This document shows, piece after piece, positions 14,489-35,253 of a stretch of DNA of 64,000 bases. The stretch covers positions 2,103,648-2,167,647 of the forward strand of contig SMSO01000014.1 of assembly GCA_004764695.1 (NCBI GenBank), written 5' to 3'. Each line of letters starts with the position of its first letter. The stretch's first letter is position 1. The notes beneath the pieces were generated by a model. It did no database searches. It was not told where the DNA came from and worked only from the letters and a program-made list of their open reading frames with translations. The DNA is from Schizochytrium sp. TIO01. Lineage: Eukaryota; Protista; Bigyra: Labyrinthulomycetes. Both the position numbers and the translations under genes were made by a program.

Positions 14489-14560
14489 GGGGCGAGTTGG
14501 GGATTGAACCCAAGACCCCCTCTACCCAAAAGAGGGATGCTGCCACTACACCACACGCCC
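14489..14560 (-). tRNA. tRNA-Pro (anticodon UGG), no intron
   Basis: Reverse complement GGGCGTGTGGTGTAGTGGCAGCATCCCTCTTTTGGGTAGAGGGGGTCTTGGGTTCAATCCCCAACTCGCCCC folds as a 72-nt cloverleaf. Anticodon stem CCTCT/AGAGG, loop TTTGGGT, T-arm TTGGG-TTCAATC-CCCAA, A and B boxes intact. Confidence 0.93.
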
Positions 14561-14731: not shown

Positions 14732-15661
14732 CTAACTCTGCTCTTCTTTATCAATGCGCTGGAAAAGCGCATTGAGAAATACACGATCAATGTTTTGGCC
14801 AGTTTTACGATTGATGTTCCTCACTGTGACATATTTACACTCCTGCACTGCCATACATACTTCAGTCTCGAGAGATTTGAGCAATGACTGAAAGTACTCG
14901 ATTGAGAAAAAAAAACATTGCACGCCGTCCTGCTTGATATACCAATTTTCACCTAGGCGAGTTTTGCATCTAGTCTGTACCATATCAAAGAGGCCATAAT
15001 CACGGAAACAAAGGTGTCCGCCCAGTCGAAGGGATACACATAGTTTTCTTAAAACTTCTGCATGATGACAAGGTGAGATTGCCGATAGTGTAAAGATCAT
15101 AAGTCCAAAGTCTAGCGATGCTAACTTCATAGGAAGGGGATCCTGAACGATATCGCAGACACTAGCTTCAACACGAGAGGCCAATTCCTTAGAATTTGCC
15201 AACAGTTTGAGGGAGTCGATTGCAGAAGGCGAAACATCTACTACTTGAACCGACAGTTGTGGAATTTCTTTCAAGAGAGGTAGAACTGCAGCACCAGTGC
15301 CGCAGCCTAGTTCACCAAGAACTCGCGGCTGTGCTTCTGAAAGATCAACCAAGGCAGGAAAGGCCTTTGCTAAATACGAGCGCTCTTTGAAGAACCCATT
15401 TGCATGTGCTGCATAGAAAGCCTCCCAGCTCTGTGCCAAGTTGTCTTCTTTTGTACGTTGAGCTACTTCCTCACTGTCAAGCATTGGCGGAGCCTCATCA
15501 CCGAGACACTTATTTCTGCGCTTTGCAGCAACATCCTCCCAGGCAAAGTCTGCATCATAATAAGCAGTGGCACTACCCCGCTTCTTTGTCTCCGAGATCT
15601 TCTTTTCGACATCAGAATCCGCACTAGTTTTCTCAGCTTCAACTCCCATCTTGGGGTCCAT
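14732..15661 (-). CDS. METTL2/METTL6 (Trm140)-like tRNA m3C methyltransferase
   Basis: WEAFY..H.NGFFKERSYL..AFP, ELGCGTGAAVLPLL, IFTLSAISP, LCFRDYGLFDM, ENWYIKQDG..FFFS. First ATG is at 15661 (the track start is GTG). Confidence 0.88.
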   Translation of the reverse strand: MDPKMGVEAEKTSADSDVEKKISETKKRGSATAYYDADFAWEDVAAKRRNKCLGDEAPPMLDSEEVAQRTKEDNLAQSWEAFYAAHANGFFKERSYLAKAFPALVDLSEAQPRVLGELGCGTGAAVLPLLKEIPQLSVQVVDVSPSAIDSLKLLANSKELASRVEASVCDIVQDPLPMKLASLDFGLMIFTLSAISPCHHAEVLRKLCVSLRLGGHLCFRDYGLFDMVQTRCKTRLGENWYIKQDGVQCFFFSIEYFQSLLKSLETEVCMAVQECKYVTVRNINRKTGQNIDRVFLNALFQRIDKEEQS

Positions 15662-29576: not shown

Positions 29577-30344
29577 TGTAAGGCTACCTCACCCTGCTTT
29601 GGCCTTGATTTTTACTCCTCCGCCTTGGTGTGCGAGGAAGCCATCTGCCATGTCTGGCGCCGTCTGCCTCGCCTTCCCTTTCCATGTCTTTTGCTGCCTC
29701 CTCCGTAGCGTCGATTTCAAGCCAAGCAGCTCTTCGGAAGGTCTTCTCCCTCGTCCTCTGCGGCCTCGGCTGCCAAGCGTCGAAGTATTCAAAACTCCAA
29801 TCGATCAGTCAATATCCTCCCAGCAACAAACCTGCCTTCATTTCAGCCCTCCGCTCGCCCTTCGCTTCGTGTCTCTGCTGCGCTGCGCCGGCTGACTTCG
29901 CCTGCTCACCCATTCGTTGGTTTGCGCGACGGCAGCGAACGACTTGGAGCTCAGAGTCGCGGTTCCTGAGGCCTGGTCCCTCAATCTTCTCGTCGACGCC
30001 ATAATGTTGGCTTCCTTGCGCCCTCCACCCCCCGACGGGGACGCTCGAGGGCGTTCGGGAGCCGCCGCTCGCCCCCGTAATCGTCGCCGCTCTTCGAACG
30101 GGCCGACCTCAGCACCGCTTCGCCTTTCTGCCTCGAGTGAGTGTTGATTTGAGCGGAGAGTTGGAATTTGGATTTGGATTTGGATTCGAATTTGAATTTG
30201 AATTTCTCGATCTGCTCGAATTTGAATTTACTCACTTCGTTTTGCAGCTGAAGAACCTTTTTCCTCTTTTTCCCCTCCCTTCTCTCTCCTTCTATGATTC
30301 TGTCTGCGCAACCCATTTTAACTAACTTCAAAGGGTCAGTTACG
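29577..30344. other. Unexplained GC-rich island; possible solo LTR or non-autonomous element
   Basis: Abrupt GC rise between AT-rich flanks. Starts TGTAAGGCTACC and ends GGGTCAGTTACG (imperfect inverted termini), with an internal (TTGGAT/TTGAAT)n tract. No clear target-site duplication. Confidence 0.25.
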
Positions 30345-30839
30345 ACTATAGCACCGCCTATAGTGCTTTTGTAGCAGTGACGGTGCCTAATTCTCAGGTT
30401 TTATGATACATTACTACAACTGGTGATTCACTTTGCTTTATTAATTCAGTTCATCCTTTTAGTTGGGTAAAATACTCCAAGTAGAAACATATCATTTTCG
30501 TGCGAAGAGGTAATTAAAAAATAAGAAATTCATGAGTTTAAAATATGCTTCTTTAGCTTAGGTAGATAGTTATCCTAGCTAGTTAGGGACGGAAGAATAG
30601 GTGAGGGAGGTTACAAGTAACGATTTGGAGAAGGTTATCAAATAAGACGTTTCTGGTCCGGAGATTCTTTGCGGTAGGTATTAGTTAAGAAAATAGTGCA
30701 GTGTTTAATAAGGGAAAATGCATGGTGGCACAGAATCGTGATTTGCGAGCGAATCGTTGTGCAGAGACTCCAGAGGACTAACTGCCTGCACGGACGGAAA
30801 CGCAAGCTTTATTGTTCGAGGAAAACTGACGTACTCGAG

Positions 30840-33335
30840 ATGATTGACGAAGACGATGACAGCGGTGTAATTGAGCTGCAAACGGACGGACTCCGGCAGC
30901 TTTTCGAGATGAGTCTGCCTGAGCTCACGCTTGACAAGTGCATCTCGGCGAGGCCTTTAGGCCTGCTGCACAAGAAAGCACCGCTGAGCTCATCTGGTCT
31001 CCAGGATCCATTCGACCAAGATGACGACAATGAAGTTCTTCAGAGCAGCATCGACGATCAGGAGATTGAAAAGGCTACTGAGAAGAATGCAAGTTCTCAA
31101 GACATCGCTGTGAACCCAGGTGAAGACCTTGACCAGGAGAACCCTGAAGAATATAACATTCCAGCGAGTGACGTCAAGTTCAAGCTTTTGTGCGCAGAGA
31201 TGGAGCCTGGGTCTGGTTGGCAGTCTGGCAAATTTGTTTGGCCTGCTGCTGAAGAGCTGTGCAGGTACATTGGCAGTGACTCGTTTGTGGACCAATCGAT
31301 TGCACGCGGAGACCGAATTACTCGAATCCTTGAACTGGGCACGGGTTCTGGTCTTGTGGGCATCTTTCTTGCGCGCTTGCAGGCTCGACTTCACAAGCGT
31401 CGAGGCTATGTAGTACTGACGGATCGTGACCCGTTCCTACTTGATATGATCAAGCGAACGCTCAAAATCAATTCTGATGAAACTCTCCCCGTGGAAACGG
31501 CCGAGCTCTCATGGGGTGCAACCGAGCCGTCTCTTGATGCACTCAAGTCTCGGTTCTCGCGACGTCCCTTTGATCTCATTGTTGCTGCGGATGTGATGTA
31601 CTCGACAGCCGCTGTAAAACTACTTTTCGAGACGATTGATGAGATCTTTCGTCACTCTGAAATGCGAGGTGTACAAACTCAGTTTGTATTATGCTCAAGC
31701 TTTTGTGTGCAGGAGACAACCAACATTGTCATTGAGTGCTGTAAGCGTTATGGTATTGAACGAGAGCTCCTAAAGAACGAAATTCCGCAAAAGGGATGTC
31801 TGCTGGAGCGCTTTGTACGCGCACCAACAGAGTCGTTAGGAGGTCATCAGAACCTTTTACAACAAACATTGAAAAGCCTGCGTCAAGACGAATATGGGCC
31901 CTTTGCCCGTATTCAGTCAATTCATGCTGACGCAGGCTTCGTAGAGCACTTGTGCTCCTCAACCTTCGAGTCTAGATTACCCGTTTTTGCGAACTTGCGA
32001 AATGGTGCATGGTATACTAACTCAGAAGGGTGTTACTTCAAAAGCACGGATGGGCACGTGAACCACCCGACTTTTGCTGCTCGGAGACTGAATATACAAG
32101 TTTTGCAGGCTGCGTGCGCAGCAGCTCGGTCCAAAGTTGCTGTTAGTTTCTTTCCCGAGTTGTACACTGGTGGTGTTGTCCTCGTAGACGCCACTCGACG
32201 CGGCAAACGCTTCCCAGACTCTTTCTCCAGAACAGTTCCGATTTGGTGTTTTGTATTGAACCAGATCGCTGGTCATACAGACTCAGTACTTGATTTACCT
32301 CCATGGGTACCTAAATCTGAGTATAGTGCGCTAGCTTCTCGCTTTGAAGAGTGGAAAGCTCTTGTGCCTGCTCCAGCGTTGGATGTGATTCGTTCCGCCA
32401 TGGCGGAGCTTCCTCCACTACGTCCAGTGTGGGTCTGTTGCGATGGTACCCAAAATTGGCTTGTGGAGGCGCGTGACACAGATGTAACTTTACCTGCTGA
32501 AGATACTGAAGCCCCTTGTGTGCCAATTGTTTGCTTGAGCGCCTCAGTAGCAATCAACGCCGACACTGAGCGAGAGTTCCGGCAATCGTGGCGATACATC
32601 CCTGGCGCAGGAGATGACCATGAAATGTGGGCAAGTGACCTAAATCCTTTAATGTTTTGGCGTTACCGCAAGGAACTAGTGGCTTGTCGAAGTAATGAAG
32701 AGTGCGAGGCTCTCATTGCCCAATTTAGCAAATCTCAAGTAAATACAATGAATGAATCAAATGACTCAACCTGTTGGAGTTCTTTGATTAGCCATTCTCA
32801 TTGTAGATATGCACTATGTGATTTGATGTTTGCAGACGACTCATTCTTCACTCAGCTTGATGCAAGCAAGCATGTACTATTCGACCTTCAGCAAAAAGAA
32901 AGCAAGAATGATAAAGAATGGGAGAAGAAATTGCCGCATAACCAAACTGTAATTCTTCAAGCGTCGCCGAAGGTGTTGAACCAAAGAGATTTTTGGCAAC
33001 GCACTTGCCTTCCACGTGCTTACAAGCTTGCCACTGAAGCTAAAGCTTCTGGCCGTACCCTAGTGCTTCGCACGAACAACTTGAGCCCAGAACGAGCATG
33101 CTTGGCAGTTGCCCTTGCTTGTTTTGGTGTGATGGATGACCCCAAGGCAGATATCAAGGTTGAGGTGAATGCGGCACTCTTTCACGTGACAGAGGCCGCT
33201 GGCACCAGTTTGGCGCAGCCGCCTTCTCGAAAATTACTCAAAAATATTATTGTGTTTCTACACGATTCGCGACGGATAAGGATGCTGAGCGATTCTGAAG
33301 GCAAGACGGGCAGTTGTGCAGCGTCTCGTGAATAA
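30840..33335 (+). CDS. RIT1: Fusion: METTL21/Methyltransf_16-like SAM methyltransferase plus Rit1 (initiator tRNA A64 2'-O-ribosylphosphate transferase)
   Basis: MTase motifs SGKFVWPAAEELCRYI, ILELGTGSGLVGI, VVLTDRD, LSWG, FDLIVAADVMY. Rit1 motifs ANLRNGAWY, CYFKSTDGH, RRLN, LVDATRRGKRFPDSFSRTVPIWC.VLN, YIPGAGDDHE.WA..L.P..FW, PSRKLLKNIIVFL. First ATG is at 30840. Confidence 0.88.
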   Translation: MIDEDDDSGVIELQTDGLRQLFEMSLPELTLDKCISARPLGLLHKKAPLSSSGLQDPFDQDDDNEVLQSSIDDQEIEKATEKNASSQDIAVNPGEDLDQENPEEYNIPASDVKFKLLCAEMEPGSGWQSGKFVWPAAEELCRYIGSDSFVDQSIARGDRITRILELGTGSGLVGIFLARLQARLHKRRGYVVLTDRDPFLLDMIKRTLKINSDETLPVETAELSWGATEPSLDALKSRFSRRPFDLIVAADVMYSTAAVKLLFETIDEIFRHSEMRGVQTQFVLCSSFCVQETTNIVIECCKRYGIERELLKNEIPQKGCLLERFVRAPTESLGGHQNLLQQTLKSLRQDEYGPFARIQSIHADAGFVEHLCSSTFESRLPVFANLRNGAWYTNSEGCYFKSTDGHVNHPTFAARRLNIQVLQAACAAARSKVAVSFFPELYTGGVVLVDATRRGKRFPDSFSRTVPIWCFVLNQIAGHTDSVLDLPPWVPKSEYSALASRFEEWKALVPAPALDVIRSAMAELPPLRPVWVCCDGTQNWLVEARDTDVTLPAEDTEAPCVPIVCLSASVAINADTEREFRQSWRYIPGAGDDHEMWASDLNPLMFWRYRKELVACRSNEECEALIAQFSKSQVNTMNESNDSTCWSSLISHSHCRYALCDLMFADDSFFTQLDASKHVLFDLQQKESKNDKEWEKKLPHNQTVILQASPKVLNQRDFWQRTCLPRAYKLATEAKASGRTLVLRTNNLSPERACLAVALACFGVMDDPKADIKVEVNAALFHVTEAAGTSLAQPPSRKLLKNIIVFLHDSRRIRMLSDSEGKTGSCAASRE

Positions 33336-34518
33336 ATTGCTCGCAAACATCGCAAATAACAGCGTCGCATCTAGGACATTGATAATAAGCCTCTACTGCT
33401 GGACCTTTGATGAAGGAGACTGAGCAGGCACTGCACGATGGATCTTTAGAAATCATTGTGTTTGCGCCGGCTTTGAGGGCATCAGCCATTTTCACTTCGC
33501 GAAATCTGGGTACTGGGAAGAGATGATGATAGGACCTTGACAAATGAGCAGAAGCAATTAATTCAAGTTCGCATATTGGACAATCTGTTGGGAGTTCTGA
33601 GACAACCGTGGCGCATCGTGGGCATGCGTATCCCTTGCTTGTGATTTCGTTTATATCGGCAGCAAGGGTTTTCCCTGCTGTCACCGCTTGACCAGACACG
33701 GTTCGTCCGTCACTGGTATCTTGTTCCGAAGTGCACTGTGATGGAAATCCCATTCTTACAAAGGTACATCGCAGGCCATTCTGATTCTCTGCAAGTGCCG
33801 GTGCTGGAGGCACATGGCTCTGAAGCAGTTGCCTAAAATGTTCCTTGCTAACAATAACATCATGACGTCCTCTCGTTTGCTCCGCGAGATATTTTGCCAC
33901 ATATACCTCAGCCGAGAGCCCAATCACAGAGCACCTTACCTTGGCCCTTTCTAATTTTTCAATGGTTTCAAACACATCTCCTTGGTCGCATGTACTTAGT
34001 GAAGACATCAAAACAAGCACCTCACGACTTCCGTGCTGCGGCACACTCTGAAGCGCCGCATGTGCCAGCTCGAGGCCATTTTGAAGCGAAAATTCGCCAC
34101 CTTGTGCAAATAGGGACAATGCCGCCAAGTGTCTCTGCGAGCTTGCGGACATGTCTGTCAGCTTTTGTGCAAGGCCATCTCTAGATATCACAATGCTCAA
34201 GCTACTCAGTGGGTTTTCATCAAAGTAGGACACCACGAAATCTTGCAGCAATTCTGCAGTTACTACGCGTCTCGACGGTCTCAAGTCGCTTTCCTCCATG
34301 GACTGTGACATGTCTACCACCACCACAAGAAAACGAATCATGTTGCGACACAACGTACCCTCTGGGCCGGAAACTCGGCGCGTGCCATTCATGCGTCCTC
34401 CTTCAAGTCCTAAACCTTCGCGACCTTCAGAGGCCACTGCTCGAAGGATACCATGCTCATCTTCTTGAAGAGCTTCCCAGCTCCGCGCAAGGTTAGTTTC
34501 CCAGGCATACCCTGACAT
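33247..34518 (-). CDS. GTF2H2: TFIIH p44 subunit (Ssl1/GTF2H2)
   Basis: GYAWE...RSWE.L.EDE.G, vWA VVDMSQSM..DLRPSR, YFDENPLS, SLQNGLE, SREVL, LSTCD.GD, GYACPRC..ELPTDCPIC, HLSRSYHHLFP, C-terminal FIHETLHNCPSC. Confidence 0.95.
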   Translation of the reverse strand: MSGYAWETNLARSWEALQEDEHGILRAVASEGREGLGLEGGRMNGTRRVSGPEGTLCRNMIRFLVVVVDMSQSMEESDLRPSRRVVTAELLQDFVVSYFDENPLSSLSIVISRDGLAQKLTDMSASSQRHLAALSLFAQGGEFSLQNGLELAHAALQSVPQHGSREVLVLMSSLSTCDQGDVFETIEKLERAKVRCSVIGLSAEVYVAKYLAEQTRGRHDVIVSKEHFRQLLQSHVPPAPALAENQNGLRCTFVRMGFPSQCTSEQDTSDGRTVSGQAVTAGKTLAADINEITSKGYACPRCATVVSELPTDCPICELELIASAHLSRSYHHLFPVPRFREVKMADALKAGANTMISKDPSCSACSVSFIKGPAVEAYYQCPRCDAVICDVCEQFIHETLHNCPSCLQNRSASLSVANRVETQ

Positions 34519-35253
34519 CGTTGAATTCGTTGATAGATTGAAGACAGTCTTGGTTTAGCTGGGTGGCTTTGGTGGAGTTGGAGTAAAGTTGGAGATGATG
34601 AAGACGAGGATGTAGAAGAAGCAAGAGAGCGACTTCCCCCAAACAAGACCCTGCTTTGACAACAGCAGCGAGGAAAGAGAAACTCGACTTGGATTTCGTG
34701 AAAAGTGGAGGGCTAACTGAGCGGAGCGAAGAGGTCCGCCGCAGCAAGTTGGAGCACAACCTCTTTTATATTTGTTGTTCTTCGACTTTGCTTCTTTTCA
34801 TTATTTATGACTATCTATCTGCTTGCTTATTATTGTTGGTAATTTCTATAGAGAAACATTCATAATATGATGTCAAAATACGTTGCATGTACTTTCGATT
34901 CAAGTTCTGACAACCAAGTGAATAGGTGGTGAAGCTGGCGTGCGAGTTTTAATAATTATATCAGCGAAGTGCTAAGGATTGTTTTCTTTGCGAAAGAGCA
35001 CAAAATCATATATCTAGTTCCGAGTCCCAATGAGGCTGACCTTAAATCATATGAGTTTTTGCATGTAATATTATATCCTAAAGAAAAACAGTAGCTAGCC
35101 CCGTCCCGAGCTGCTACTGGCAACTGCTCGGGTATCGATCTTGCGACATACCCAGACCCTATGGATTGAAATTCTCTGAACAATAAAAACAGAATGGAAA
35201 TAAAACACAGTCATGTGATTTTGAATTTAATTTGTGAAGGAAAGGAGGAGAGA

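Follow-up and report, generated by a model that had tools for sequence, protein, structure and literature searches.

Organization of the locus

In the 64,000-nt window analysed here (Schizochytrium sp. TIO01, contig SMSO01000014.1), the plus-strand open reading frame at 30840-33335 is intronless and encodes, up to a single in-frame stop, a protein of 831 residues, and the remaining two frames of this interval contain 40 and 63 stops. Pfam places Methyltransf_16 (PF10294) at aa 128-273 (72.8 bits against a cut-off of 21, E 3.8e-20) and Rit1_C (PF17184) at aa 348-629 (209.9 bits against a cut-off of 27, E 6.1e-62). The predicted domain order, in a single chain, is a Family-16 lysine methyltransferase, then Rit1, then a degenerate domain resembling the dual-specificity phosphatases (DUSP), and the features are the following:

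30840-33335, plus strand: whole open reading frame, Family-16 methyltransferase, Rit1 and DUSP-like domain
30888-30923, plus strand: N-terminal motif R..F....P, aa 17-28 (R19, F22 and P27 invariant in the alignment)
30957-31166, plus strand: acidic low-confidence spacer, about aa 40-109 (alignment; pLDDT below 50 for aa 1-131)
31167-31820, plus strand: Family-16 seven-beta-strand methyltransferase domain, aa 110-327 (Pfam and motifs)
31821-31835, plus strand: short in-frame junction without stop or Met (low pLDDT at aa 313-330)
31836-32726, plus strand: Rit1 N-terminal, putatively catalytic domain, aa 333-629 (PF17184 and conserved columns)
32766-33287, plus strand: degenerate DUSP-like domain, aa 643-816 (own profile and predicted fold)

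The original prediction of a methyltransferase and Rit1 in one reading frame is borne out by the Pfam matches, with coordinates that were essentially right, and so is its observation that neither a stop nor a Met marks the Rit1 boundary: the Met residues of the protein are at 275 and next at 521, with none near 328-333. The structure model, built from an alignment of 146 rows, has a mean pLDDT of 70, with moderate confidence for the methyltransferase. A model from the single sequence (pLDDT 39) was discarded, and Foldseek matches of the whole model to helicases (TM about 0.14) were dismissed as noise. The reading frame contains 13 SNPs, of which seven change a residue and none falls in a motif, too few for a selection test.

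The reading frame stays open before the ATG at 30840, so the true start may lie earlier. One member of the query's cluster, P0122, was called with 34 additional N-terminal residues, and some sequencing runs lack 2 nt at 30729. At the other end, the 3' end of the fusion overlaps by 89 coding bases (33247-33335) with that of a convergent SSL1/TFIIH-p44-like reading frame on the minus strand (33247-34518; PF04056, E 4.5e-68). The sole tRNA gene within the window is a tRNA-Pro (14489-14560), which adjoins the reading frame of an unrelated class I methyltransferase (14732-15661).

The junction in independent sequencing runs

At least 20 sequencing runs from 12 studies contain 50% or more of the sampled words, and eight of them were compared with the window. 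The junction is bridged by a single contig in all eight, with neither intron nor gap, and no contig joint falls inside the reading frame. This bridging rules against an assembly artefact, which the original prediction had allowed for. False fusions do occur in the Rit1 family, as several annotated genomes, each on its own, have Rit1 joined to an unrelated partner, but the full fusion is present in three members of the query's cluster, and two other proteins, P0152 and P0180, have the same architecture. The merging of two genes through a sequencing error or a mis-join is already largely refuted, and we regard it as extremely unlikely. No telling repeats were found near the junction. A short tract of TTTGAA/TTTGGA-type repeats lies at 30162-30229, where many unrelated contigs of the same runs align with loose ends, and the motif is therefore dispersed in the genome.

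None of the 20 listed runs is recorded as RNA. In X15, X16, X19 and X20, which we guess to be RNA, the contigs start at 30537-30696 and end at 34605-34803, and those of the DNA-like runs X12 and X14 continue further. Run X20 has contigs arranged gene by gene, with a loose poly(A) end at a neighbouring gene; the contig ends and this poly(A) weakly suggest that transcription crosses the junction. Since the convergent SSL1 gene is covered as well, the junction contigs fall short of proving a single mRNA. Among the indels listed, a 1-nt deletion at 32468, in the Rit1 part, leads to a stop at codon 549 in one of the eight runs (X14), and may reflect a sequencing error, an allelic difference or a mutated strain.

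The methyltransferase domain

All five methyltransferase motifs are intact in the query: GKFVWP with W134, LELGTGSG at 164-171, TDRD at 194-197, LSWG with W225, and DVMY at 251-254. The hallmarks of Family 16, as given in passages of PMC5324768, are two Trp residues, one of them the invariant active-site Trp, and [D/E]xx[Y/F]. Like motif I, all are also present in P0152, P0180 and the stand-alone orthologue P0301. The PF10294 scores of P0152 and P0180 are 58.3 and 48.7 bits, respectively. Among solved Family-16 enzymes, single-sequence comparison with all METTL21 chains yields 21-25 bits, and a profile yields 26-47 bits (46.5 for the plant enzyme 7oas, 34.4 for METTL21B and 28.8 for EEF2KMT); P0301 scores 14-26 bits against solved members of the family. 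The query domain thus appears, from these weak and similar scores against METTL21A-D, EEF2KMT and the plant enzyme, not to be close to any solved member, and the METTL21-type label first given to it proves too narrow for a Family-16 domain whose scores point to no clear subfamily. A search of the ESM Atlas returned generic Family-16 clusters only, and NCBIfam gave no match above cut-off. The low and even scores and the generic Atlas clusters point to no particular substrate of the methyltransferase.

The methyltransferases of the query, P0152, P0180, P0301 and P0182, a gene model of Hondaea fermentalgiana, form a separate group. The N-terminal R..F....P motif is common to P0152, P0180, the Hondaea model and the stand-alone P0301, and in the alignment it presents itself as part of the methyltransferase module, possibly with a role in substrate recognition. 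The acidic spacer (about aa 40-109) is much shorter in P0152 and P0180. Family-16 enzymes are described, in the sections consulted of PMC5324768 and PMC10238732, as protein-specific, with narrow and varied substrates, which in humans include chaperones, calmodulin, KIN17, ETFB and eEF2; in the yeast part of PMC5324768, all six enzymes of the family methylate translation proteins, with eEF1A as the target of Efm6 and Efm7.

The Rit1 and DUSP-like domains

With PRPP as the donor, Rit1 places a phosphoribose on the initiator tRNA, at A64 or G64, and so blocks eEF1A binding, as outlined in parts of PMC7694415 and PMC11301382. The query retains the Rit1 motifs NLRNGAWY, YFKSTDGH, DATRRGK and GAGDDHE. 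At the Rit1 columns conserved in at least 90% of 278 other rows, it matches 40 of 40, against 39 for yeast Rit1 (P0114), 37 for P0152 and 36 for P0180, a count that favours the query, as the rows were collected by similarity to it.

The C-terminus of the query has no match to PF04179 at E ≤ 0.1 in Pfam, and the same is observed for P0152 and P0180. Scored with a profile built from 171 Rit1 C-termini, the last 200 residues of the query obtain 20.4 bits (the best of 200 shuffles reaches 5.6), those of P0152 27.8 bits and those of P0180 19.9 bits. The predicted fold of aa 643-812 is that of dual-specificity phosphatases (DUSP/PTP; Z 14.9, rmsd 2.4, 133 residues aligned); matches to this domain filled the structure-match list, so that the folds of the methyltransferase and Rit1 domains were barely probed. 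The claim of a complete Rit1 therefore stands by length and fold, but not as far as a PF04179 match is concerned. Active dual-specificity phosphatases carry their catalytic Cys in a CX5R loop. In the query, the aligned loop reads LRTNNLSPER (743-752) and has no phosphatase cysteine, and the loop C..G.D.S, present in 83 of 171 stand-alone Rit1 C-termini, is absent from all three fusions; for these two reasons the DUSP-like domain is likely non-catalytic.

Distribution of the fusion and of its stand-alone parts

An exhaustive search gave 2242 matches, the best 150 of which include the fused proteins P0152 (JGI) and P0180 (ENA). P0152 has 787 residues and matches aa 110-806 of the query, and P0180 has 893; in both, PF10294 is followed by PF17184. 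Two further, divergent proteins thus carry the fusion, each with intact halves, in support of the original prediction. Pairwise identities among the three fusions are 41/34/37% for the methyltransferase, 38/38/35% for Rit1 and 25/22/18% for the C-terminal domain, and, with both halves diverging at similar rates, neither appears to be decaying.

An N-terminal extension of at least 150 residues is found in nine of 285 Rit1-domain proteins, namely four of the query cluster, P0152, P0180 and three others, and the methyltransferase profile matches no other Rit1 protein of the set collected. Eight other long Rit1 proteins were scanned, all of them singletons: seven have unrelated partners (aminotransferase, GCV_H, striatin/WD40, RRM, DUF6314, Rieske and Ap4A phosphorylase) and one has none detected. 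As these other partners are singletons, the Family-16 methyltransferase is the only recurrent Rit1 partner seen. A word-index search with the whole protein gave 178 matches, and among the 120 listed PF10294 occurs only in the query's own cluster; the same search with the methyltransferase region returned only the query itself. A profile search of longer proteins found four and missed P0152, despite its being part of the query profile, and the fusion counts from these searches are therefore too low.

Among the best 150 of the 2242 matches, the closest named relative is P0182 (GBG27203.1) of the thraustochytrid H. fermentalgiana, with 194 residues and 58% identity over the matched stretches. This gene model comprises part of the methyltransferase only: it has neither the invariant Trp nor motif I, stops short of the DxxY motif and contains no Rit1. 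Either the gene was predicted wrongly, or a close relative has truly lost these parts.

In metagenomes, each half was also found on its own, with 80 of 115 confirmed loci kept (79 Rit1 loci and one methyltransferase locus, L029). The methyltransferase of the fusion was not seen at the 79 Rit1 loci, of which 52 have at least 1500 bp upstream. L029 encodes P0301, a methyltransferase orthologue of 238 residues with its own stop codon, and no Rit1 was found on its 4114-bp contig. P0301 is 36% identical to the domain of P0180 and 30% to that of the query, a resemblance well above that of the generic Family-16 proteins P0290 and P0291. At L029 517-2021, its gene is divergently paired with a reading frame that may encode a CCR4/nocturnin-type nuclease. 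A first metagenome scan with the methyltransferase alignment gave 81 pattern matches, none of them confirmed, as was the case for 29 matches in viral contigs. The original prediction described fungal and plant Rit1 as stand-alone, and this holds for most of the other homologues examined. Named Rit1 matches beyond fungi come from the brown algae Ectocarpus and Scytosiphon, from Naegleria and Planoprotostelium, and from the haptophyte Tisochrysis, so that Rit1, as judged by these matches, extends beyond fungi and plants.

Evolutionary history of the fusion

Trees of the Rit1 part were calculated with subsets of 40 and 35 rows, hand-picked from 282. The query (P0001) and P0152 are sisters on the Rit1 part, with a support of 83, and of 88/83 in another tree; a quick tree that includes the C-terminal domain gives 96 (SH-aLRT). 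P0180, in turn, is a long branch among the stand-alone Rit1 proteins (99/96; 90 with the C-terminal domain included), a placement that is unsupported in a FastTree of 324 rows, and the AU test does not reject a single clade uniting the three fusions (p 0.231). The methyltransferase of P0180 scores 124 bits against the stand-alone P0301, versus 107 against P0152 and 86 against P0001. These data are compatible with one old fusion followed by later splits, or with two independent fusions.

Comparison with known systems

As in yeast Rit1 (PF17184 and PF04179; tRNA A64-2'-O-ribosylphosphate transferase), the Rit1 N-terminal domain of the query is followed by a domain of DUSP fold. In contrast to the yeast protein, the query has a 330-residue N-terminal extension containing a methyltransferase, and its C-terminal domain is below Pfam detection and lacks the C..G.D.S loop. 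It shares with Methyltransferase Family 16 (METTL21A-D, EEF2KMT, Efm2/3/6/7 and CaM-KMT) a PF10294 score above cut-off and the hallmark motifs, but differs from the other members in its fusion with an RNA-modifying enzyme. Thraustochytrids, of the same broad lineage, reportedly have another multi-enzyme fusion in a single reading frame, CrtIBY, which joins consecutive steps of one pathway, whereas the two enzymes of the query differ in substrate class and have no evident shared pathway. A literature search for a methyltransferase-Rit1 fusion or a protist Rit1 found no description, though subscription papers and supplements may contain one, and in PMC7954030 Rit1 appears only among the references. 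In our view, two known enzyme families are combined here in a new architecture that is real and conserved.

Possible roles of the fused protein

The best explanation, to which we give a probability of about 0.55, is that one gene encodes two active enzymes, a Family-16 methyltransferase and Rit1, which work separately on their own substrates although they share a chain. Like other Family-16 members, the N-terminal domain would bind SAM and place methyl groups on a single protein target, which the N-terminal motif would help to select. By analogy with yeast and plant Rit1, the second domain would take phosphoribose from PRPP and attach it to the initiator tRNA-Met at the 2'-OH of purine 64, so that the modified tRNA would be withheld from eEF1A and stay in the pool used by eIF2. 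Two adjacent genes, in an ancestor of thraustochytrid-like organisms, are the likely source of the fusion; what it would provide is joint expression and a common location, not a shared reaction. It was likely retained because both activities were kept. We read the halves as independent because P0301 stands alone without Rit1 and the methyltransferase was not seen at the 79 Rit1 loci. Points against this explanation are the X14 deletion, the Hondaea P0182 model and the finding that all yeast Family-16 targets belong to translation, and the retention over a large divergence, with the possible second origin represented by P0180, may speak for a tighter coupling.

Such a coupling would exist if the methyltransferase acted on eEF1A, eIF2 or another initiator-tRNA factor, tuning both the tRNA and the factor that discriminates it. 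The pairing recurs in three divergent proteins while the eight other long Rit1 proteins are singletons, the position of the P0180 Rit1 among stand-alone forms, with a methyltransferase nearer to P0301, fits a second independent fusion, and the eEF1A methylation by yeast Efm6 and Efm7 (in the excerpt of PMC5324768) offers a precedent. However, the scores against METTL21B, METTL21A, METTL21D and EEF2KMT are low and alike, a single fusion clade is not rejected (AU p 0.23) and P0180 is unsupported in the 324-row tree, and the human substrates mentioned in the same excerpt range over chaperones, calmodulin, KIN17 and ETFB, so that we consider this reading unlikely. Action on eEF1A or eIF2, as originally proposed, has so far found no support: the domain is not close to any solved enzyme of the family, and the stand-alone P0301 has no adjacent Rit1. 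We find it improbable that the same methyltransferase was fused to Rit1 twice independently and methylates eEF1A, eIF2 or Rit1, with the stand-alone orthologues acting in trans; if true, initiator/elongator tRNA discrimination would have an arm on the protein side that has gone unrecognised.

The methyltransferase could instead serve Rit1 itself, by acting on it, sensing SAM, or binding or methylating tRNA, and so offset the degenerate DUSP-like domain. The lack of both the PF04179 match and the C..G.D.S loop in all three fusions and the short junction in P0001 and P0152 agree with this, but roughly every second stand-alone Rit1 C-terminus is likewise without the loop, the protein-methyltransferase signature is kept and recurs with the same motifs in a stand-alone orthologue, and Family 16 is described as protein-specific in the relevant part of PMC5324768; we judge such a regulatory module quite unlikely. 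A comparably small chance is given to a neutral or dispensable fusion that has an inactive half or is cleaved into two products, and that lineages split or lose freely. It would accommodate the X14 deletion, the truncated Hondaea model and the presence, near P0180, of either half as a separate protein, as well as the dispensability of yeast RIT1 for normal growth noted in a portion of PMC3112208; the motifs of both halves, however, have stayed intact in three proteins that are 30-40% identical, and no Met lies close to the boundary.

With separate activities as the preferred reading, the fusion is a testable lead for an uncharacterised group of Family-16 methyltransferases, and it documents an intact Rit1 in a thraustochytrid-like protist, the modification being described for plants and fungi in a review. 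If the halves are coupled, a protein-methylation step would be added to the means of keeping initiator tRNA out of elongation; if they are not, the protein would be a well-kept fusion of two housekeeping enzymes.
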